Made by a program: the position numbers and the translations under genes
Shown: in pieces, positions 34,501 through 60,275 of the stretch
Layout: the number at the start of each line of letters is the position of its first letter
Position numbering within the stretch: position 1 is the first letter of the stretch
Sequence record: OM632669.1
Direction: 5' to 3' (one strand)
Origin: Escherichia phage BEU42
DNA: 64,000 nt
The notes under the pieces: model-generated
What the model saw: the letters and a program-made list of their open reading frames with translations, nothing else
Told to the model about the DNA's origin: nothing
The model's database searches: none

Positions 34501-36057
34501 AGCCATAGCTTCTTGTGCTGCCTGTGCAACATAGTCATCAGCAACAGGAGATGCTTCTTCATTCTGCTTCATAACCCGCTCACCACGAGCTACCAAAGTG
34601 TTCTTAATAGGGGAAACAACCTTACCTGCTACACTACCAGCAGCTTTAACACCAGCCATTGTGGTACGCAATACAGGAGCAGTTGCAGCACCTGCTAAAC
34701 GAGCAGCACCAGCCGGAGCCTGTACAACACCAGCAGAACCAAAGCCATAAAGAGCACCTAAACCAGCTTGTGTACCGACACCTTTAAGCAAGTCTTGGTT
34801 CTTATCAATGTTTTGTTGCTGTGCAATATTCTGAGCCAGTTGGCCTGTAGCACCCTGAACACCTTCTTCCACTGTTTCACGGGCAAGGTTCATACCTACA
34901 GCACCTAAAGAACCAGCACGGAAAGGAGCCATCTCAAAACGAGATACCAGAGGACCAGTTGCAGCAGCAATAGGTAATTGAATAGCAGCAGCAGTAAGAC
35001 CAGTTTCAGATGCAGTCTGACGACGAGCCTGTTCTGGAGACATACCATCTTTAATATGTTGCTGATAAACAGGAGACTTCTCTAAGTCTTTAAGACTCAT
35101 CTTCATAATTTCATCAGCAGTTTGTTGGTATGCACCACCAGCTTCCATTACACCAACACCAACCATACCTGGTGCAGCTCTGCCTACAGTAGAAGCAATA
35201 CGAGCCAGGGACTGAGTACCAGTACCTGCATCAATAGCACCAGCCAATGCAGCACTACGAAGAGTATTTGCTGGAACAACTGCTTTACCCAGTAAAGATG
35301 CACCCTTTAATACAGGACCAGCACCTAATAGAGAACCTACCCCTTCTGCTAACCCATCAGAAATAATAGAGTCAGTTTGAGCAGCATTCTCAATTGAACC
35401 TACAAAATCACGTCCAAATTTAGATAAGGAAGCTACTATGTCATTAGTGCCTTCTTTCTTATCTGTTTGATACTGACGTTCACTCTCTACCTCACTCATT
35501 AAGTTACGAGCAGCGAAGAGCTTACGTTTATCTTGTAATGCTTGGCTTTGGGTAGCATGGACAGCATCATTAAACTTACTCAATTGTTGAGCAACAACAG
35601 CACCTGCGTCATCGTTGAGTAAGCCTGCCCCAAGAGCACCAATGCCCCCAAGGGTATTAACAAAACCAAGACCAACACCAGTAGCAATATCCCCCAGTTC
35701 TTCCCCAGGAGTTCTTGTAGTAACTGAATCATTGAATACCTGGTTCCCTGCATCAGCACGAGCGTTGATAAGTTGTAAGCCTTGCTCAACCCCATACTTA
35801 TTCATGATTTGCATTGGAGTCAGATTCATGAAATCTGATTGCACTGTCCCTGGTTCAAATGCATTAGCCCCAACATTACCAGTACGGGCAGCTTGCATTT
35901 GATAAGCAGCATCAGGAGAAACAAGAGGAGTAGTGACACCTTGTTCAGCTTTCTTCTGGGCGGTTGCAGTAGAGACGTCAACTTGCTTTGCATTGGTTAC
36001 GCTGTCTGCGAACCCAGCCAGTCTATCAAATACTGACATAGTAGGTTTCCTATACAA
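25537..36057 (-). CDS. virion-encapsidated RNA polymerase (N4 gp50-like giant vRNAP)
   Basis: Single ORF of 3506 codons, or exactly 3500 if translation starts at the second Met (ATG ending at 36039, which has AGGAAA upstream). Central region has single-subunit RNAP-like elements (motif B-like KRGIAKNPLTITIYGSGARG). The ~3500-aa size is the hallmark of N4-like phages. Confidence 0.8.
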   Translation of the reverse strand: MYRKPTMSVFDRLAGFADSVTNAKQVDVSTATAQKKAEQGVTTPLVSPDAAYQMQAARTGNVGANAFEPGTVQSDFMNLTPMQIMNKYGVEQGLQLINARADAGNQVFNDSVTTRTPGEELGDIATGVGLGFVNTLGGIGALGAGLLNDDAGAVVAQQLSKFNDAVHATQSQALQDKRKLFAARNLMSEVESERQYQTDKKEGTNDIVASLSKFGRDFVGSIENAAQTDSIISDGLAEGVGSLLGAGPVLKGASLLGKAVVPANTLRSAALAGAIDAGTGTQSLARIASTVGRAAPGMVGVGVMEAGGAYQQTADEIMKMSLKDLEKSPVYQQHIKDGMSPEQARRQTASETGLTAAAIQLPIAAATGPLVSRFEMAPFRAGSLGAVGMNLARETVEEGVQGATGQLAQNIAQQQNIDKNQDLLKGVGTQAGLGALYGFGSAGVVQAPAGAARLAGAATAPVLRTTMAGVKAAGSVAGKVVSPIKNTLVARGERVMKQNEEASPVADDYVAQAAQEAMAQAPEAEVTIRDAVEATDATPEQKVAAHQYVSDLMNATRFNPENYQEAPEHIRNAVAGSTDQVQVIQKLADLVNTLDESNPQALMEAASYMYDAVSEFEQFINRDPAALDSIPKDSPAIELLNRYTNLTANIQNTPKVIGALNVINRMINESAQNGSLDVTEESSPQEMQNVALAAEVAPEKLNPESVNVVLKHAADGRIKLNNRQIAALQNAAAILKGAREYDAEAARLGLRPQDIVSKQIKTDESRTQEGQYSALQHANRIRSAYNSGNFELASAYLNDFMQFAQHMQNKVGALNEHLVTGDADKNKSVHYQALTADREWVRSRTGLGVNPYDTKSVKFAQQVALEAKTVADIANALASAYPELKVSHIKVTPLDSRLNAPAAEVVKAFRQGNRDVASSQPKADSVNQVKETPVTKQEPVTSTVQTKTPVSESVKTEPTTKESSPQAIKEPVNQSEKQDVNLTNEDTIKQPTESVKETETSAKESTVTEELREGIDAVYPSLVGTADSKAEGIKNYFKLSFTLPEEQKSRTVGSEAPLKDVAQALSSRARYELFTEKEVANPAFNGEVIKRYKELMEHGEGIADILRSRLAKFLNTKDVGKRFAQGTEANRWVGGKLLNIVEQDGDTFKYNEQLLQTAVLAGLQWRLTATSNTAIKDAKDVAAITGIDQALLPEGLVEQFDTGMTLTEAVSSLAQKIESYWGLSRNPNAPLGYTKGIPTAMAAEILAAFVESTDVVENIVDMSEIDPDNKKTIGLYTITELDSFDPINSFPTAIEEAVLVNPTEKMFFGDDIPPVANTQLRNPAVRNTPEQKAALKAEQATEFYVHTPMVQFYETLGKDRILELMGAGTLNKELLNDNHAKSLEGKNRSVEDSYNQLFSVIEQVRAQSEDISTVPIHYAYNMTRVGRMQMLGKYNPQSAKLVREAILPTKATLDLSNQNNEDFSAFQLGLAQALDIKVHTMTREVMSDELTKLLEGNLKPAIDMMVEFNTTGSLPENAVGVLNTALGDRKSFVALMALMEYSRYLVAEDKSAFVTPLYVEADGVTNGPINAMMLMTGGLFTPDWIRNIAKGGLFIGSPNKTMNEHRSTADNNDLYQASTNALMESLGKLRSNYASNMPIQSQIDSLLSLMDLFLPDINLGENGALELKRGIAKNPLTITIYGSGARGIAGKLVSSVTDAIYERMSDVLKARAKDPNISAAMAMFGKQAASEAHAEELLARFLKDMETLTSTVPVKRKGVLELQSTGAGAKGKINPKTYTIKGEQLKALQENMLHFFVEPLRNGITQTVGESLVYSTEQLQKATQIQSVVLEDMFKQRVQEKLTEKAKDPTWKKGDFLTQKELNDIQASLNNLAPMIETGSQTFYIAGSENAEVANQVLATNLDDRMRVPMSIYAPAQAGVAGIPFMTIGTGDGMMMQTLSTMKGAPKNTLKIFDGMNIGLNDITDASRKANEAVYTSWQGNPIKNVYESYAKFMKNVDFSKLSPEALEAIGKSALEYDQRENATVDDIANAASLIERNLRNIALGVDIRHKVLDKVNLSIDQMAAVGAPYQNNGKIDLSNMTPEQQADELNKLFREELEARKQKVAKAKAEVKEETVSEKEPVNPDFGMVGREHKASGVRILSATAIRNLAKISNLPSTQAATLAEIQKSLAAKDYKIIYGTPTQVAEYARQKNVTELTSQEMEEAQAGNIYGWTNFDDKTIYLVSPSMETLIHELVHASTFEEVYSFYQGNEVSPTSKQAIENLEGLMEQFRSLDISKDSPEMREAYADAIATIEGHLSNGFVDPAISKAAALNEFMAWGLANRALAAKQKRTSSLVQMVKDVYQAIKKLIWGRKQAPALGEDMFSNLLFNSAILMRSQPTTQAVAKDGTLFHSKAYGNNERLSQLNQTFDKLVTDYLRTDPVTEVERRGNVANALMSATRLVRDVQSRGFNMTAQEQSVFQMVTAALATEAAIDPHAMARAQELYTHVMKHLTVEHFMADPDSTNPADRYYAQQKYDTISGANLVEVDAKGRTSLLPTFLGLAMVNEELRSIIKEMPVPKADKKLGNDVDTLLTNAGTQVMESLNRRMAGDQKATNVQDSIDALSETIMAAALKRESFYDAVATPTGNFIDRANQYVTDSIERLSETVIEKADKVIANPSNVAAKGVAHLAKLTAAIASEKQGEIVAQGIMTAMNQGKVWQPFHDLVNDIVGRTKTNANVYDLIKLVKSQISQDRQQFREHLPTVIAGKFSRKLTDTEWSAMHTGLGKTDLAVLRETMSMAEIRDLLSSFKKVKDEISTLEKEIQNQAGRNWNLVQKKSKQLAQYMITGEVGNNLLRNAHAISRLLGERITNGPVADVAAIDKLITLYSLELMNKSDRDLLSELAQSEVEGMEFSIAYMVGQRTEEMRKAKGDNRTLLNHFKGYIPVENQQGVNLIIADDKEFAKLNSQSFTRIGTYQGSTGFRTGSKGYYFSPVAARAPYSQGILQNVRNTAGGVDIGTGFTLGTMVAGRITDKPTVERITKALAKGERGREPLMPIYNSKGQVVAYEQSVDPNMLKHLNQDNHFAKMVGVWRGRQVEEAKAQRFNDILIEQLHAMYEKDIKDSNANKSQYVNLLGKIDDPVLADAINLMNIETRRKAEELFGKDELWVRRDMLNDALGYRAASIGDVWTGNSRWSSSTLDTVKKMFLGAFGNKAYHVVMNAENTIQNLVKDAKTVIVVKSVVVPAVNFLANIYQMIGRGVPVKDIAVNIPRKTSEINQYIKSRLRQIDAEAELRAAEGNPNLVRKLKTEIQSITDSHRRMSIWPLIEAGEFSSIADAGISRDDLLVAEGKIHEYMEKLANKLPEKVRNAGRYALIAKDTALFQGIQKTVEYSDFIAKAIIYDDLVKRKKKSSSEALGQVTEEFVNYDRLPGRFRGYMESMGLMWFYNFKIRSIKVAMSMIRNNPVHSLIATVVPAPAMFGNVGLPIQDNMLTMLAEGRLDYSLGFGQGLRAPTLNPWFNLTH

Positions 36058-36102
36058 ACTTATATCTATTAGAAATCACACTATACCTAGTGTAAGGACG
36101 AG

Positions 36103-36126
36103 AAAAAAGCCCCGAAGGGCTTTTGT
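36103..36126 (-). terminator. terminator/attenuator hairpin upstream of the vRNAP gene
   Basis: Plus-strand aaaaaagccc-cgaa-gggctttt; on the minus strand the hairpin is followed by TTTTTT; lies between the 644-aa gene stop (36140) and the vRNAP start. Confidence 0.5.
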
Positions 36127-36139
36127 ATTATGGTAGAAA

Positions 36140-38074
36140 TTAACGAGGAAATATATCAGGGATACCCAATCGACGTCCGGCATCTCTGCCTAAACTTCTC
36201 CGGTTTGCCTCGCTCTCTTCCTGTTTAATATTTTGTAGGCTCTTAATATCCAAATTCTGAGGGTCAGCAGCTACAGCACTACGAGCACCATCAAGAAGAC
36301 GTTTAGCAGTATTAACTCGCTCCTGATAGCGAGGTAGTACACTTCTAAGGTTTTCCTGACCGGTCTGAATACGACGCTGTACTTCACGTAAATCAGCAAG
36401 TGCAGTATCTAACGTATTCTGTGCTGCATAGATGTTTGATTGAATTTGTGCAGTAAGCTGATTACGAGCATTCTGTTCAATAGCAGTACCAGTAGTTGCA
36501 AGTTTTGCATTTGCTTCTACGGCTGCTTTATCCAGTTGGTAATCACCACCCAAATCAATAACATCAGTATCAAAGGCATTTCGAATACCACTAAACCATC
36601 CCTCTGGTTTACCAGTGATACTGCGTTGAATGATTGCTCCTGCCATAGCGGGAGAAATAGCATTCTGTTTTGCTACCTCATTGATTTGTCGAACCAGTGC
36701 ACCTTGGTTAATGCCTTTCAGTTCATTGTTATCAATAATACGTTTAGCCACCTGACCAGTCGTAGAAGGGTCAACAGTAGCAGCTTGGTATTCAGGCAGC
36801 AGAGTATTACCAATATTCTGCATATTACGAGTACCAACAGTATTACCAGCAACAGAAGTGAATGCTTGTTCCTGTAATGGATTAATAGAATTACCTGTTT
36901 CTGCTTGAGCAATGTAATCCTTCATTTCATCCCATGACAGGTTCTTATAAGCACCCGGAGTATCATCTGGTAAAGCAGCCCATGTACTCTTCAGATTGCC
37001 ATTCTTACGAGCATTAAAAATAGCTTCACCCAGTTTGTCTTGGTTCTCCGGAGACATAGGGATGTTCTGCCAATCTTCACCAAATACCTTTGGAGCAAAG
37101 TCTTTAAGGGTATCTTGGTTAATCTGGTATGCACCAACAGGAGAAGCACCTAGTGTCTTCTTCATAGTGTCTTGATGCTGAACCACCTGACCTAAGTTCA
37201 TCTGAGTAATAGGTACATCAGTTGGTGTGAACTTATAGGTAGTGTCATATGCAGAACCATTCCGAGTACCCTGAGTACCAGGAGGAGATAGAGATGCAGA
37301 ACCAGTTCCCGGAGTATATGCACCTGGGTATGCTCTATCTAACTGAGATAGTGCACGACTTACTGCTCCTGGTGACATTTGGTCGAACGTACCCTCTGCA
37401 AGCATACGAGCATCGTCAGCACTGTATGCACCACGACGAATATTATTCAGTAACTGCATAGCAGCCTGAGTATCCGCATCGTTACGCATATCAACACCTA
37501 AGTTGAATAAGCTGCGACGTTGACCAATACCAGCAGTACCCTGTCCTTGAAGGTTGTTCATGTAGTCCATAACAACACCAGCAGGAAGGGTTTTTAATAC
37601 GTCTCCATACTGAGCCTGTGCTGCCTGAACCTTTCTTGGGTCACCAGATTGATAAGCCAGAGCCAATTCCTGCAATGCAGGAGCAGCAGCATCAGTAGCT
37701 GCATTTACCTTCATGGTTCTGTCATTACTGTATCGAGTGAAATCCAGATTTTGTTGTTTAGATGCTTGGTCTAACAGATTGCCAGCACGATTATCTAAGT
37801 TCTCCATAGTACGAGAAGAAATTAGAGAAGGGTCATAGCCAGCAAATAATGCTCCAGAAGCTAAGGCATTACGATACTCATTAGGGTCTTGGTAACGCAT
37901 GGCTTCAGCCATAATTGCATCACCAGCTTGCTGTCTTGCAGAGTCTCGAAAATCACCTAATGCATTACTCAATCCGGCAGTGGCATTACCCAGCATATTG
38001 GAGAAAGTACGAATACTATCCCCAACACCAGAGAAAGAAGGAGCATCAACATTACGCCATGTAATTTGAGCCAT
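36140..38074 (-). CDS. putative virion protein (644 aa)
   Basis: Late-strand ORF with AAGAGG RBS; Q/N/A-rich; no motif recognised. N4 gp51 position by gene count. Confidence 0.5.
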   Translation of the reverse strand: MAQITWRNVDAPSFSGVGDSIRTFSNMLGNATAGLSNALGDFRDSARQQAGDAIMAEAMRYQDPNEYRNALASGALFAGYDPSLISSRTMENLDNRAGNLLDQASKQQNLDFTRYSNDRTMKVNAATDAAAPALQELALAYQSGDPRKVQAAQAQYGDVLKTLPAGVVMDYMNNLQGQGTAGIGQRRSLFNLGVDMRNDADTQAAMQLLNNIRRGAYSADDARMLAEGTFDQMSPGAVSRALSQLDRAYPGAYTPGTGSASLSPPGTQGTRNGSAYDTTYKFTPTDVPITQMNLGQVVQHQDTMKKTLGASPVGAYQINQDTLKDFAPKVFGEDWQNIPMSPENQDKLGEAIFNARKNGNLKSTWAALPDDTPGAYKNLSWDEMKDYIAQAETGNSINPLQEQAFTSVAGNTVGTRNMQNIGNTLLPEYQAATVDPSTTGQVAKRIIDNNELKGINQGALVRQINEVAKQNAISPAMAGAIIQRSITGKPEGWFSGIRNAFDTDVIDLGGDYQLDKAAVEANAKLATTGTAIEQNARNQLTAQIQSNIYAAQNTLDTALADLREVQRRIQTGQENLRSVLPRYQERVNTAKRLLDGARSAVAADPQNLDIKSLQNIKQEESEANRRSLGRDAGRRLGIPDIFPR

Positions 38075-38550: not shown

Positions 38551-41106
38551 TTACGTATCTAAATCAAGCTGCAACGTTATATCTGCAAAGTTGGTAATCA
38601 TGTTGTTAGACATGTCAGCTATATCATGACCAGTCATAAGAGTACGGTTAAGGAATGAATCCAATGGCTCAAATTGTTGGCCTACATTAGTTAGGTTCAT
38701 TGGGTCAATGTAACCCATGCCCTCAGTGCCAAACATTTCCTCGTACTTTTCCTGAATGGTTTTCATCTGGTCACGGTACTCTGCCATAAGTTTCTCTGTC
38801 TTTTTGACAGTTTCCATAGCAGAAGCATTGATGTAATCACTTATGCCATTTCCTACAGATGAAGTGAGTTTAATGATGTTATCTGCTTTCATCATTTCAC
38901 CCAGCATCGTAGACATGGATGAACCAGTGGATAAAGCTGTACCAACATTCATGGCTACCATAGAGGCAATGGTAGCAACAATGATTCCAATCTTATCCCC
39001 AAGCAGACTAACAGAGACTGTTTGAATAATGGACATCAGAATCATAGCTGCAATGGCATTAGCCACAGCCCCAACGATAATAGCAGCTAACCCTGCAAAA
39101 CCTAATGCAGCACCAATAGAAGCAGCAGTACCCATTACCCCAGCACCAGCAGCAGGAGTAAAGAACACAGACACTACTACTGCAACAACAACCACTACTA
39201 CTTTAAAGATGCCAGACTGATACCATTTCTTCTTAACTTTCTTATATGAGTTAAGAACCAGATAACAACATGCAGTAGATAACTGAGTACCATTTACCAA
39301 AGACATACTACGATAAATGTTGTTATGAAGAGGGATGATAAATCCGGACTCTTCATCATCATTTAGTGCATCTACACCAGAAATGCTTACAGATTTATTC
39401 TTGTAAACATTATTGTTATGGTTCAGGCCATAGACAGAAATCTTCCTCCATGAATTATCCCCATCCTGCCAATACATTGTTATCTTATCTAGCCTGTAGA
39501 TATTAAACCCAACTTTGTCATTACCCTTTTCAGAGTACATAACGGCTTTCTGCATAAGGACTACAGTACCTTCATAAGCAAACTTGAGCTGCCCTTTCTT
39601 GGCTCCAGAGAATGCTTTTCCCGAACCAACTGACTCTTCAATGAAGTTCCAACTAATAGTCATGTTGTAACGGTATCCACCGTTAGAACGAATATTAATG
39701 GATTTAGAAGGTATTGTTGGATATACGGGTCTTTTAGGGGGTTTCCCTATGGGAATATCCCTATTACCACTACGAGATTTCCACCATTCCTGGTAGGCAT
39801 CAAAGTCCCTGTTAGCCTGAGCAAAGCCTTCTACCAAAGCATCCATAGTTGGGTAGTTTGGGTCAGCAGGCATTGACTGATTCACTAACTGGAAGAACCT
39901 GTATATAATGTCAGAAATCTTACCCCCTGTAGCCTTCTTAAAGGCTTTCTTACAAAGAGTATATGTAGAACCAGAAATCCAGTTCTTATCACTACGGATA
40001 GGGATGAATGAATAGAATCTGTTATTGGTTGTTTTATTAATAAACAAAGCATCAAGAACAGCATTACCACTATTCTGTTTATAAATAAACAGTTGAGGCA
40101 TACCACCAGCAGACAGAGTAGTAACTACATCTGTATTCTGATAAGACCATGTATAACCTAAAGTATCTGTAGTTACTGTAGTAGTTCTGGTTTCAGTAAC
40201 CCCACCACCTAAATCAATAACTTCAGTGTTTGTAGTGGAACCAGTAGATACAGTACCAGTCTGTACCTGGGTCATTGTAGTCTTACGAATAATGATTAAG
40301 CCTACTTCACTTGGTTCACGAAATTCTTTCTCGTAAACATCTGAGAAGTTAGTCCAACTAACCTGTTCTTCTTCAGTATTGGTACTTTCCTCATCAGGTC
40401 TACCATCAGAGAATACACTCTTAATATGAGTAACTGTCTTCAGAGTAGCTGACTTAGGGGTATGGTTCTGAGATACCTGAGTCCATTCAGAAGTAGAAGG
40501 TAAGTCATCAGCAGATGATACAGATACAACAGGATGAACCACTGGGTCTGCAACACTAGTAGGCTGTATGTAGTAATAATTCACATACAGATACATTGCA
40601 TCCTGACTGTAATTCTTTGGATAAAAGGATAACTCACTACCATCAGTAGCAGTGAGTACAATCCTGTCATCATCCATGATGTCTATTTCAAACTCTTCAG
40701 TAATACGGTCTGGATAATTCTCATAGAGGAATTTATCAGCCCATTCCTCAAAATCACCAAATCCAATCCTACTGCTCTGAACCTGTACCTCATAACCTGC
40801 TTTTTGAGGAACTTGCCATTTAACTACTTCAGGGTCTATCTGAGACAGTACTGACAAGTTCCCATAAGCAATACCAATTGAAGGGTCATAGTTAGTTGCA
40901 GCCCAACCAGGGAATCTACGTAAACGAATACCAGGTCCATTTAAATAAGAGTCAGTGATGGTATCACCCATACTAAAGTCAGATTTACTGACGATGTTAC
41001 CAATCACCGTAGTCTTTAAATAATTTGGACGTTTATGTATATCCCCTGCCAAATTGTAGACAGAGGATGCTACGTAGATTTTAGTCTTACTGCTAAACAG
41101 TCCCAT
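38551..41106 (-). CDS. large virion protein with internal multi-helix hydrophobic region (851 aa)
   Basis: ORF; residues about 600-720 form consecutive hydrophobic segments (VVVVVVAVVVSVFFTPAAGAGVMGTAASIGAALGFAGLAAIIVGAVANAIAAMILMSII...). N4 gp53 position. Confidence 0.5.
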   Translation of the reverse strand: MGLFSSKTKIYVASSVYNLAGDIHKRPNYLKTTVIGNIVSKSDFSMGDTITDSYLNGPGIRLRRFPGWAATNYDPSIGIAYGNLSVLSQIDPEVVKWQVPQKAGYEVQVQSSRIGFGDFEEWADKFLYENYPDRITEEFEIDIMDDDRIVLTATDGSELSFYPKNYSQDAMYLYVNYYYIQPTSVADPVVHPVVSVSSADDLPSTSEWTQVSQNHTPKSATLKTVTHIKSVFSDGRPDEESTNTEEEQVSWTNFSDVYEKEFREPSEVGLIIIRKTTMTQVQTGTVSTGSTTNTEVIDLGGGVTETRTTTVTTDTLGYTWSYQNTDVVTTLSAGGMPQLFIYKQNSGNAVLDALFINKTTNNRFYSFIPIRSDKNWISGSTYTLCKKAFKKATGGKISDIIYRFFQLVNQSMPADPNYPTMDALVEGFAQANRDFDAYQEWWKSRSGNRDIPIGKPPKRPVYPTIPSKSINIRSNGGYRYNMTISWNFIEESVGSGKAFSGAKKGQLKFAYEGTVVLMQKAVMYSEKGNDKVGFNIYRLDKITMYWQDGDNSWRKISVYGLNHNNNVYKNKSVSISGVDALNDDEESGFIIPLHNNIYRSMSLVNGTQLSTACCYLVLNSYKKVKKKWYQSGIFKVVVVVVAVVVSVFFTPAAGAGVMGTAASIGAALGFAGLAAIIVGAVANAIAAMILMSIIQTVSVSLLGDKIGIIVATIASMVAMNVGTALSTGSSMSTMLGEMMKADNIIKLTSSVGNGISDYINASAMETVKKTEKLMAEYRDQMKTIQEKYEEMFGTEGMGYIDPMNLTNVGQQFEPLDSFLNRTLMTGHDIADMSNNMITNFADITLQLDLDT

Positions 41107-41109
41107 GTA

Positions 41110-42018
<909 letters not shown>

Positions 42019-42031
42019 TCATTGGTTCATT

Positions 42032-42067
42032 AAAAGAAAACGGCTCACGGTTTTACCCAGTGAGCCG
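42032..42067 (-). terminator. possible terminator hairpin within the late operon
   Basis: 8-bp stem cggctcac/gtgagccg with 11-nt loop; on the minus strand followed by TTTTCTTTT. Confidence 0.4.
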
Positions 42068-42088
42068 TGCTGACTTACAGATTAACTC

Positions 42089-42715: not shown

Positions 42716-42777
42716 GTGTATATATCCTATTCATAAAGTAAGGGGAGGTTTCCCTCCCCCTGATGTTAGCCCAACTA

Positions 42778-43994: not shown

Positions 43995-45212
43995 TTATAG
44001 GCCGTTCAGCCGAGGTAGTTTCATAAAGTCCTCGTCACTCATTGCAAGAGGATTAACAAGGACTTCTGTCTTACGCGGTGTAACCCGTGATGGGGATGCC
44101 GCTGCTGCCTGTTGAGTATTAGTGATTTCAGACTTAGGAGTTGCAACACGAGTTGCTACTGGCTGAACCACTGGTTTAGGTTGTTCAACAGGTTTCTGCT
44201 TAATCAAATCATTAAAACCACCATTAGCAGCAAGGTAGTTACCGACTTGATTATAAGCATCCAGGAATGCTGTACCGATTGGGATTTGGCCTAAGATTTT
44301 GAGTCGTTCAATTTCAGAAACAATACGGTCGTAAATACCGTTAGCTTTCTGTTCAACGATGGTATTAACCAGACCACGATTTTCCAGCAATGCCTGTTTG
44401 CTGTGGTCATCCCACGTAGTCGAAATTAACTGAAGAGTAGCTTGTCCTTCTGGAGTGGATTTAGCATCTTCCAGTTCGGTTGCAAATGCTGCTTCAGCAT
44501 CTGACACACGGTGATTACCAGCTTGGTATTTAACTTCCTCTTCCGGATTAATATCCAGAACATCAATACCAGATTCTTTAACCAACTTCTTAATAGCATC
44601 AGGATTCCCTTTAACTAAATCGATAGCATAAGAGAGTTGCCCTTCATCTAATAATCCGTTGTTTTCTAACATCAGGAGATACTTACGATACGGCTGAATC
44701 TCCTGCATTTTACGGGTATAGTTAGCTCCCATTTGCATCAGGCTAATGACCTCTTCAGGACTTTGAGGAGTAATCATTTTGCCGTTAGCTTTAAACGGAG
44801 CCATTATCCGTTCATAACCAGCCTTATAGTCGAAGTCAGTTTTCTGGTCTGATACCTGCTTGTCTTCTTCTACTTTTGCTTGGCCTTGCTCAGTAGTAGA
44901 AGGTGCATTATCAGTAGCAGGCTTACTGTTGCTGTCAACCTTATTTGGGTCAACTGTAGCACTATCATTACCAGTTGTGAATGCATCTGAATTGCTTTCT
45001 GATTCAGAAGTATTTTCTACTTCAGTTGGTTCAGTAGTTACTTCTGGTTCATCAGTTTGTTCAACTTCAACAATTGGGTCTGGTTGTGCAGGAGTATTAT
45101 TTTCTACCGGTTCCGGGTTGTTCTGAATGCTTGATGGACCAGGCATGTTCAGAATCTCTTCATCCGACATTTTAAAAATGTCGGAAGCTGTTTTTGCAGC
45201 TTCCGTAGTCAT
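43995..45212 (-). CDS. putative scaffolding-like protein with acidic low-complexity N-terminus (405 aa)
   Basis: ORF with GGAGAT RBS; N-terminal about 130 aa rich in E/T/S/D/N/P; located between portal and capsid genes. Confidence 0.4.
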   Translation of the reverse strand: MTTEAAKTASDIFKMSDEEILNMPGPSSIQNNPEPVENNTPAQPDPIVEVEQTDEPEVTTEPTEVENTSESESNSDAFTTGNDSATVDPNKVDSNSKPATDNAPSTTEQGQAKVEEDKQVSDQKTDFDYKAGYERIMAPFKANGKMITPQSPEEVISLMQMGANYTRKMQEIQPYRKYLLMLENNGLLDEGQLSYAIDLVKGNPDAIKKLVKESGIDVLDINPEEEVKYQAGNHRVSDAEAAFATELEDAKSTPEGQATLQLISTTWDDHSKQALLENRGLVNTIVEQKANGIYDRIVSEIERLKILGQIPIGTAFLDAYNQVGNYLAANGGFNDLIKQKPVEQPKPVVQPVATRVATPKSEITNTQQAAAASPSRVTPRKTEVLVNPLAMSDEDFMKLPRLNGL

Positions 45213-49565: not shown

Positions 49566-49580
49566 GCTAAATCCTTATTG

Positions 49581-49601
49581 AAAAAGCCGGGTATCCCCGG
49601 C
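49581..49601 (-). terminator. Rho-independent terminator (minus strand)
   Basis: Plus-strand aaaaagccggg-tatc-cccggct; on the minus strand the hairpin is followed by TTTTT; downstream of the 417-aa gene. Confidence 0.55.
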
Positions 49602-49668
49602 TCTGTTAGTCCTAATGAACAGAGAGTGTGTTTATACACCCGTCAAATAGTACCGATATTTACTAGTA

Positions 49669-50925
<1,257 letters not shown>

Positions 50926-50954
50926 TTAATACCCCCATTGCTGGGGGTTCCTTG

Positions 50955-57528
<6,574 letters not shown>

Positions 57529-59806: not shown

Positions 59807-59933
59807 AGTCTTCCTACAAATTATCTAGAGTGAAGAGGATTCTTTTCTTGGGGTTAGCACCCCTTGCAGAAACCTATACATAGATTTAGACTTTAGACTT
59901 TCTTTAGTCTCCTTACAATAGTAAGACAGAGAC

Positions 59934-60275
59934 ATGGGGAGCCTATTGCCCAAAGGAACCAGTAACATGAGGCTATTCTATAGTTTTGACGGTAATGACC
60001 AATGGAATGAGATAGACTTCAGTAAAATAGGTGGAGCTATCCCAGTTGGAGGGGCTATACCAGGTGACCATATCTTATGTCACGATGAGGAGTCTTTCCA
60101 TTACATCTCAGGTATGATGTTAATCAATAACGTCACTGGGTTTACTGTCCATAAACCTGCACCAGTACGTGTCATTACCAAGCCTATCGAGGGTCTTGCA
60201 TTCTTTACAAGAATACCTCAAAGTATCTCTATCAAACGACAGCGTGACGCCATCGAGATGACCGTGGTTGCTTGA
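59934..60275 (+). CDS. hypothetical early protein (113 aa)
   Basis: First plus-strand ORF after the strand switch; weak RBS. Confidence 0.4.
   Translation: MGSLLPKGTSNMRLFYSFDGNDQWNEIDFSKIGGAIPVGGAIPGDHILCHDEESFHYISGMMLINNVTGFTVHKPAPVRVITKPIEGLAFFTRIPQSISIKRQRDAIEMTVVA

Follow-up and report, generated by a model that had tools for sequence, protein, structure and literature searches.

How does a phage that injects its own RNA polymerase hold the dose of that enzyme low, when the corresponding gene shares an operon with those of more abundant virion proteins? This question is raised by the spacer between gp51 and gp50, the latter encoding the injected polymerase vRNAP, in Escherichia phage BEU42 (sequence record OM632669.1), of which a stretch of 64,000 nucleotides (nt), hereafter the window, was analyzed. 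The genes gp52, gp51, and gp50 constitute a conserved ejection-protein operon whose products are present in the virion in 12, 12, and 4 ± 1 copies, respectively, gp51 being itself an ejection protein (PMC13434306). Phage N4 is the model for phages which inject their own RNA polymerase, and low-dose expression of its vRNAP gene is not described in the literature searched. On balance, it is considered probable that the spacer represents a transcription and translation punctuation module within the gp52-gp51-gp50 ejection-protein block, which comprises a partial terminator, a structured leader, and, possibly, a weak internal late promoter. The finding is largely an ordinary one, as it concerns a terminator of a familiar type in a phage that is itself very well known; what is new here is a short hairpin kept by compensatory changes, together with an invariant leader before vRNAP, which represents a modest addition.

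The gp51-vRNAP spacer and its terminator

A query of 801 nt around the spacer exhibited 100% identity to several Escherichia phage BEU isolates and 99.4% identity to reference phage N4 (EF056009), while no base of the spacer differed among the window, N4, and AL25; by its sequence, the window is coliphage N4. The gene order on the minus strand is gp51 (36140 to 38074; 644 amino acids [aa], annotated as "66 kDa protein" in N4), the spacer, and gp50, with the gp51 open reading frame (ORF) ending in a TAA stop codon at 36140 to 36142. The longest vRNAP ORF begins at an in-frame TTG at 36057. The genuine start of the 3,500-aa protein is the ATG at 36037 to 36039 (minus strand; equal to the N4 reference coding sequence start at 45025) and not this TTG, being supported by an N terminus (MS.FDRLAGFADS) kept across genera, by the ribosome-binding site AGGAAA, and by the annotation of reference phage N4, and the non-coding spacer therefore extends from 36040 to 36139, i.e., 100 nt. 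The sequence-only reading had assumed a spacer of 82 nt with a palindrome about 20 nt upstream of the vRNAP start, a distance which holds only for the TTG at 36057, the palindrome being located 38 nt upstream of the ATG. On the minus strand, the spacer and its flanking codons read TAA-TTTCTACCATAATAC-AAAAGCCC-TTCG-GGGCTTTT-TTCTCGTCCTT-ACACTA-GGTA-TAGTGT-GATTTCTAATA-GATATAAGTTTG-TAT-AGGAAA-CCTACT-ATG.

A Rho-independent terminator, A4-GCCC-(UUCG)-GGGC-U6 (36103 to 36124, minus strand), begins 15 nt past the gp51 TAA in the sense orientation, and its assignment draws on sequence, fold energy, conservation, and annotation in relatives. It is composed of AAAAGCCC-UUCG-GGGCUUUU followed by further U's; a G-C core of four pairs on a cUUCGg tetraloop (36120 to 36109) is extended by four A-U pairs to eight pairs in total (36124 to 36105), and the U6 tract (36108 to 36103) forms part of UUUUUUCU (36108 to 36101, minus strand), which is located directly 3′ of the stem. 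The RNA folding energy is −11.2 kcal/mol in the sense and −10.8 kcal/mol in the antisense orientation, and the structure is predicted to be symmetric enough to function on either strand. With DNA parameters, a z value of −5.8 was obtained, and none of 200 shuffles folded equally well. A consensus terminator scan did not list this element, probably because maximal extension of the stem takes up four T's. It is, however, already annotated in related records, being designated "terminator" in OW991345 and listed under the match for LR999871. Because it harbors a G+C-rich stem-loop followed by a 3′ U run, lies in the sense orientation after a stop codon, and is conserved in syntenic position, it presents every sequence-level hallmark of the intrinsic class, of which it would be a member. 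The suggestion of a terminator-like hairpin at 36103 to 36126 is thereby borne out, in anatomy as well as in orientation and position. Immediately upstream, the hexamer CATAAT/CATACT (ATAnTA; 36127 to 36132, minus strand), which contributes the invariant columns A5, T6, A7, and T9 to the Enquatrovirinae alignment, may represent either an A/T-rich terminator flank, serving as a U-rich tail on the plus strand, or a chance −10-like hexamer.

This terminator is conserved well beyond N4. In 17 Enquatrovirinae sequences, its stem and U tract are invariant, the loop being UUCG, UACG, UCCG, or AUCC. Most other schitovirus lineages sampled possess a strong terminator behind the gp51 homologue, followed by approximately 40 to 60 nt to the vRNAP start; these include Achromobacter phages Axy10, Axy24, and JWAlpha, Pseudomonas phage inbricus, Erwinia phages Rexella/Frozen and Fifi450, Alcaligenes phage QDWS595, and the metagenomic contigs L043, L058, L060 to L062, and L070 (in L071, the start codon was not placeable). 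The terminator thus appears to be close to family-wide.

Six more terminator-like, G+C-rich hairpins are located in intergenic gaps of the late cluster and after vRNAP (42010 to 42088, 42716 to 42777, 49566 to 49668, 50923 to 50954, 55104 to 55144, and 25497 to 25542), and terminator punctuation would therefore seem to be a general style of N4. The distance from the U tract to the ATG is 63 nt at the vRNAP junction, compared to roughly 10 to 30 nt at other late junctions. Near the vRNAP locus, a window position equals the N4 position minus 8986; to the right of gp53 (38551 to 41106, minus strand) this offset shifts, because gp53 specifies 851 aa in the window and 885 aa in the N4 reference record.

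A short hairpin and a fixed leader upstream of vRNAP

The second hairpin of the spacer, hairpin 2 (ACACUA-GGUA-UAGUGU; 36078 to 36093, minus strand), consists of six Watson-Crick pairs and is supported by its sequence, by the stem versions found across genera, and by RNAalifold. On the sense RNA, it may be extended to eight pairs (36076 to 36095) through one U·G and one U-A pair. The plus strand at 36077 to 36094 reads cacacta-tacc-tagtgtA, in which the outer seventh pair is a C/A mismatch (a G·U wobble on the sense RNA); the palindrome cacacta-tacc-tagtgtg of the sequence-only reading is, therefore, real but has a perfect stem of 6 rather than 7 bp. A perfect stem of at least 6 bp in a segment of about 35 nt is obtained in approximately 4% of shuffles when N4 alone is considered. 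Hairpin 2 is thus statistically marginal in N4 alone, and its significance derives from conservation. As RNA, it folds with −8 kcal/mol; the DNA hairpin has no more than −3.9 kcal/mol and is therefore unlikely to be extruded from the duplex. Wobble extensions of the stem occur on the sense strand in four haplotypes and on the antisense strand in one. In the N4 minimum-energy fold, the hairpin region and the start codon form a long-range RNA helix, which was rejected as it was unsupported by the consensus fold. Hairpins with perfect stems of at least 6 bp and loops of 3 to 8 nt number 224 in the window, approximately twice the 102 to 111 found in mononucleotide shuffles.

In the comparative analysis, low-stringency BLAST aligned N4 with representatives of Kaypoctavirus (KP8), Gamaleyavirus (St11Ph5, ECBP1, IME11, Bp4, and pSb-1), and Moovirus (Moo19), the alignments spanning the vRNAP N terminus and the full spacer and ending at the gp51 stop codon. 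The comparison set for the spacer comprised 17 to 18 distinct sequences from annotated phages and IMG/VR contigs. Between genera, identity to N4 is 70 to 82% in the spacer, 69 to 73% in the first 450 nt of the vRNAP coding region, and 54 to 57% in the last 400 nt of gp51; since spacer identity equals or exceeds that of vRNAP coding DNA and is far greater than that of the gp51 3′ end, the spacer is under constraint.

Hairpin 2 occurs in about nine stem or loop types across four genera, each with at least 6 bp. ACACTA-GGTA-TAGTGT in N4 is represented by CACACT-TTGTATAT-AGTGTG in KP8, TTCACT-TACTGTAC-AGTGAA in St11, CTCACT-TAATGTAC-AGTGAG in Moo19, GCTTACT-GTAG-AGTAAGC in IME11, and CTTACT-GTAG-AGTAAG with two additional G·U pairs in Bp4, while the sequences L029 and L025 harbor ACTCACT-...-AGTGAGT and TCACTA-AATGTA-TAGTGA, respectively. 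For each stem version, the shuffle chance is 3 to 6%. Three positions of the 3′ arm vary, the partner base always matching, and double substitutions in the same register occur; RNAalifold recovered the stem, with two of its pairs exhibiting double-sided changes. These compensatory changes indicate that hairpin 2 is maintained by selection for pairing and not for sequence. The 3′ arm is located at a fixed distance of 10 to 11 nt from the 12-mer block described below and contains an invariant GTAnAGT at the junction of loop and 3′ arm, and the 5′ arm shifts register, thereby generating loops of 4, 6, or 8 nt. The center-to-center spacing of the half-sites is consequently 10, 11, 12, or 14 bp depending on the lineage, and the half-site sequences differ. 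A metagenome scan with the block pattern returned the same lineages in addition to chance matches, yielding one loop variant and no new stem variants.

Downstream of hairpin 2, the pyrimidine tract UUUCU (36071 to 36075, minus strand; UUCYU in relatives), which has invariant C and T columns and is complementary to AGGAA, is a possible anti-Shine-Dalgarno candidate that pairs with the Shine-Dalgarno sequence in the predicted fold, with no covariation. It is followed by the 12-mer GATATAAGTTTG (36055 to 36066, minus strand), which is invariant in 17 of 17 sequences, carries the −10-like hexamers TATAAG and GATATA, and adjoins the 5′ side of the vRNAP ribosome-binding site AGGAAA (36046 to 36051, minus strand), itself invariant in its AGGAA. 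Not a single indel separates the Enquatrovirinae sequences from the 12-mer through AGGAA to the ATG. In the window, the 12-mer is unique at 0 to 1 mismatches; neither mismatch searches nor a position-weight scan of the window retrieved another good copy at any late junction, and the 12-mer was thus rejected as a repeated late-promoter motif. In Erwinia phage Frozen, the motif is likewise not repeated at other late junctions and, on the late strand, occurs solely upstream of vRNAP. The first late gene, gp69, is preceded by a sequence similar to the block in KP8 (P = 0.012; AATAGATATAAGTTTGAATAGGAAAC versus AATAGACATAACTTT-ATAGAAGAC) and in St11Ph5 (P = 0.013), and the block is located 1 to 3 nt from the ribosome-binding site in both vRNAP and gp69.

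Several further sequences at these loci were recorded. The 11-mer ATAAGTTTGTA is present exactly twice in the window, at 36053 to 36063 (minus strand) in the vRNAP leader and at 23435 to 23445 (plus strand), the second copy being located 21 nt upstream of tRNA-Asn within a sigma-70-like TTGTAA-N18-TATAAC; the chance of such an occurrence is a few percent. In Erwinia, Pseudomonas, and Achromobacter relatives, the region before the gp69-like gene contains a terminator, directly downstream of which a palindromic TTCTATATATAG(G/A) common to these phages leads into the start codon (L039, 225 to 300; L040, 250 to 303; L041, 850 to 905). The gp69/gp70 gap (59886 to 59948, minus strand) harbors a non-coding stretch of 63 nt, CAATAGGCTCCCCATGTCTCTGTCTTACTATTGTAAGGAGACTAAAG...GTCTAAAGTCTAA, with approximately 86% identity in Achromobacter phages Axy04 and Axy12 of another subfamily; it is far better conserved than the flanking genes, includes a GTCTC...GAGAC inverted repeat and a CTAAAGTCTAA repeat, and has no Rfam match.

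Outside Enquatrovirinae, a hairpin is found at the position of hairpin 2 in Axy24 and JWAlpha (GGGAGT-GGTAA-ACTCCC) and in L043 (a nine-pair stem), and hairpin 2 appears to be confined to Enquatrovirinae and some other lineages. Heptamers resembling GTAnAGT are located 40 to 47 nt upstream of the ATG in the distant lineages L070 (GTATAGT), L058 (GTACAGT), and Axy10 (GTAGACT). The exact reverse complement of the 12-mer, CAAACTTATATC, precedes vRNAP on the sense strand in Rexella (L013, 327 to 338) and Frozen (L072, 26398), further positions being L014 372, L012 473, and L015 468, and it recurs with one to two mismatches in Fifi450, Axy10, and inbricus. This inverted copy occupies an equivalent place, its TATA core lying 19 nt from the ATG versus 18 nt, and the neighboring TAGTGTGATTTCT (N4) and TAGTGTAAATTCT (Rexella) share the same orientation. 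The raw chance of the inverted match is well below 1e-3, a figure weakened by the AT-rich, quasi-palindromic nature of the motif (WAASTTW around TATA).

The letters of the hairpin 2 stem had also been taken to hint at a recognition element shared with inverted repeats of the tRNA region. The letters do recur there, but five to seven shared letters are a matter of chance and carry no statistical weight. CACTA and TAGTG occur 57 and 63 times in the window, respectively, versus approximately 70 expected, and CACTA-N(0-12)-TAGTG yields 2 matches versus 1.35 expected; the 7-mer CACACTA is present twice, as is its complement, and among the 224 hairpins only hairpin 2 carries the motif. The motif is at or below background, and background frequency had been named beforehand as speaking against such an element, which is not real; beyond forming the hairpin 2 stem, the CACTA/TAGTG letters are meaningless. 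In the tRNA region, TAGTG-N7-CACTA is found at 23281 to 23297. A perfect 13-bp inverted repeat, AGTGAACACACTA / TAGTGTGTTCACT (23728 to 23740 and 23787 to 23799), carries CACACTA/TAGTGTG (7-mers at 23734 and 23787) between tRNA-Thr and tRNA-Pro (23722 to 23803, plus strand), its arms being 46 nt apart in a long hairpin of −34 kcal/mol. T-arm-like remnants, GGTTCGAGTCC and GGTTCGAATCC, at approximately 23915 to 24035 suggest decayed tRNA genes nearby.

Dosage control and its alternatives

N4 late genes are transcribed leftward by the host sigma-70 polymerase under activation by N4SSB from promoters which only weakly resemble the consensus (PMC4496689, PMC9163698), and in the N4 relative LUZ7, late expression is shaped by many leaky terminators, the read-through of which is graded (PMC9163698). 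Under the explanation favored here, host RNA polymerase advancing on the late (minus) strand would encounter the spacer terminator, where a fraction of transcripts would end, thus lowering the 10.5-kb vRNAP message relative to those of gp51 and gp52. We infer this attenuation; a leaky terminator before vRNAP fits the virion copy numbers of 12:12:4 (PMC13434306). Transcripts that read through would carry a leader composed of hairpin 2, the pyrimidine tract, the AU-rich 12-mer, the ribosome-binding site, and the ATG, in which hairpin 2 would act as a single-stranded structure of the sense RNA, shaping or protecting the region of vRNAP translation initiation at its 5′ edge. That hairpin 2 functions as a sense-RNA hairpin rather than as a DNA element is most likely, a lean and not a demonstration; the single-stranded form is favored over a duplex operator or cruciform because the half-site spacing varies between 10 and 14 bp, the DNA form is weak, and the wobble extensions are mainly on the sense strand.

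The AT-rich 12-mer block may, in addition, hold a weak internal late promoter without a −35 element, from which vRNAP transcription would restart at a low level. This component is put forward tentatively, its probability falling somewhat short of even; it is supported by the invariant −10-like hexamers (TATAAG, GATATA, and TAGATA), by the likeness of the block to the gp69 upstream region, and by the 63 nt between U tract and ATG. A number of results weigh against the favored explanation. The promoter scan identified no sigma-70-like site on the minus strand between 36040 and 36139. TATAAG, which overlaps GATATA and TAGATA, matches the −10 consensus at five of six positions but has G at −7, where a T is conserved; at 16 to 18 bp, no −35 hexamer is present, the best candidate as read from the sequence being GGTATA with two of six matches. 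The 12-mer motif is not found at other N4 late junctions and thus defines no late-promoter consensus, and the block exhibits no significant similarity to the gp69 upstream sequence in N4 and Bp4. The position of the block 1 to 3 nt from the ribosome-binding site in vRNAP and gp69 would equally fit an AU-rich translational leader. As regards hairpin 2, folding energies revealed no consistent strand bias, and no hairpin is present at the corresponding position in Rexella and Fifi450, making it a subfamily-level feature.

The same observations may be arranged differently. If vRNAP were transcribed mainly from its own N4SSB-dependent sigma-70 promoter, hairpin 2 would be a promoter-upstream DNA element beside the terminator, the −10 would lie in TAGATATAAG (36069 to 36059), transcription would start at approximately 36053 to 36051, and hairpin 2, at about −26 to −41, would replace the −35. 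Such an arrangement, which we regard as unlikely but deserving of serious consideration, would account for an invariant, AT-rich block with −10-like hexamers, for a 3′ arm held 10 to 11 nt from that block while the 5′ arm moves, and for an invariant GTAnAGT core with similar heptamers in L070, L058, and Axy10; it is also consistent with the likeness of the block to the gp69 upstream region, with a spacer that is unusually long compared to other late junctions, and with reports that N4 late promoters resemble sigma-70 promoters weakly and depend on an activator. It is difficult to reconcile, however, with a scan that calls no promoter in the spacer, with a predicted leader of merely 12 to 14 nt, and with variation in loop length that would alter the geometry of a duplex site; furthermore, the DNA hairpin is weak (−3.9 kcal/mol), N4SSB reportedly does not require its single-stranded-DNA binding activity in order to activate, and the motif was not found at other late units. 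A broader proposal is that the approximately 60 nt from terminator to ATG form a vRNAP-specific control module conserved across Schitoviridae, combining the GTAnAGT core, the covarying hairpin, and the TATA-centered 12-mer in either orientation, and that its reader is not plain sigma-70 polymerase. It could be a structure-dependent promoter whose principle is related to that of the N4/LUZ7 hairpin promoters, or an operator at which vRNAP or an ejection protein would limit the synthesis of the 3,500-residue protein by autoregulation. This proposal is deemed improbable, and the small share of belief left for an unfamiliar gene-specific control element is due mainly to the inverted 12-mer in Rexella/Frozen.

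Hairpin 2 and the 12-mer could serve as a gene-specific operator at which a phage protein, for instance an autoregulating vRNAP or ejection protein, would bind leader or DNA and set vRNAP synthesis. In both N4 and Erwinia phage Frozen, the element is found solely upstream of vRNAP, the region is kept across subfamilies, and an orientation-independent site would explain why GATATAAGTTTG is found inverted as CAAACTTATATC in Rexella/Frozen, with near-matches in Fifi450, Axy10, and inbricus. An RNA operator, however, would not tolerate inversion, and with its variable half-site spacing the hairpin is an unlikely target of a dimeric DNA-binding protein; no protein is known as a candidate binder, and the inverted match may be less surprising for a quasi-palindromic, AT-rich motif than its raw probability implies, so that such an operator is very improbable. 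That the palindrome has no function of its own and is a neutral by-product of an AT-rich spacer beside a terminator would be compatible with a 6-bp stem arising in about 4% of shuffles for N4 alone, with 224 such hairpins in the window, with the weakness of the stem (−8 kcal/mol as RNA and −3.9 as DNA), and with its absence from some schitovirus lineages; it is rendered more improbable still by about nine versions in four genera, all with at least 6 bp, three matched variable positions, and a 5′ arm that re-registers, as well as by a spacer identity equal to that of coding DNA. Should the favored explanation of dosage control by punctuation be true, vRNAP dosage would be set by a conserved leaky terminator and a structured leader, offering small mutable targets in the terminator, the 16-nt hairpin, and the 12-nt block. 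The practical value is modest and consists of a corrected vRNAP gene start, regulatory features added to the annotation of N4-like genomes, and the dismissal of the CACTA recognition element.

Comparison with known systems

In the early vRNAP promoters of N4, a stem of 5 to 7 bp carries a loop of 3 nt, the middle one a purine, on which a GC-rich heptamer is centered (PMC4496689). Hairpin 2 shares with them a short inverted repeat of 5 to 7 bp, its own stem being 6 bp (6 to 7 in relatives), and the kept pairing of variable stem positions. In contrast, the early promoters exhibit exceptional hairpin stability and are located at the left genome end, whereas hairpin 2 is weak and AT-rich, has a loop of 4 to 8 nt, and lies in the late region and on the late strand. 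As a vRNAP hairpin promoter it was rejected on account of its 4-nt GGUA loop (6 to 8 nt in relatives), AT-rich center, A-T closing pair, and location at approximately 45.07 kb of the 70.15-kb N4 genome. A palindromic dimer operator was likewise rejected, as the spacing is not constant (10, 11, 12, or 14 bp) and the half-sites differ. In Rfam 15, no family reached its gathering score, the best values being 18.5, 16.8, and 11.7 bits against thresholds of 39 to 55. By eye, the region contains no convincing match to the consensus of CRP and IHF sites. CUCUUACA (St11) and CCUUACAC (N4) resemble the lambda boxA-like CGCUCUUA; a lambda-type nut site was nonetheless rejected, since the loops of 4 to 8 nt are mostly unlike the GNRA-like pentaloop of a boxB stem and the U/C-rich tract is not kept in other subfamilies. 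Hairpin 2 is no demonstrable sigma-70 promoter element and would appear to work most like a conserved leader stem-loop.

The 12-mer block has two kinds of counterpart. With activator-dependent sigma-70 late promoters lacking a −35, as described for N4 with N4SSB and for Mu with its C protein (PMC2582627), it shares an AT-rich, −10-like hexamer at the head of a late gene and the lack of a −35 match, but the vRNAP −10 candidate is without T at −7, and the other late junctions of the genome do not carry the motif. With AU-rich translational enhancers it has in common the placement of AUAAGUUUG (vRNAP) and AUAACUUUG (gp69 of relatives) 1 to 3 nt upstream of the ribosome-binding site at a fixed spacing. 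The T7 gene 10 "epsilon" sequence, UUAACUUUA, is an enhancer of this type, AU-rich and located 5′ of the ribosome-binding site, and the resemblance amounts to six to seven of nine letters.

For the terminator, the parallels are closest to intercistronic elements of phage late operons. T-phi of T7 is such an intercistronic Rho-independent terminator, which grades late expression. Like the terminators of the LUZ7 late operons (PMC9163698), that of the N4 spacer combines a G-C stem, a stable tetraloop, and a U tract between a more and a less abundant structural gene, its position is kept in relatives, and the operon is interspersed with further hairpins of this kind. It differs from them in preceding an unusually long, conserved leader of approximately 63 nt, and its grading role in N4 is a presumptive one.

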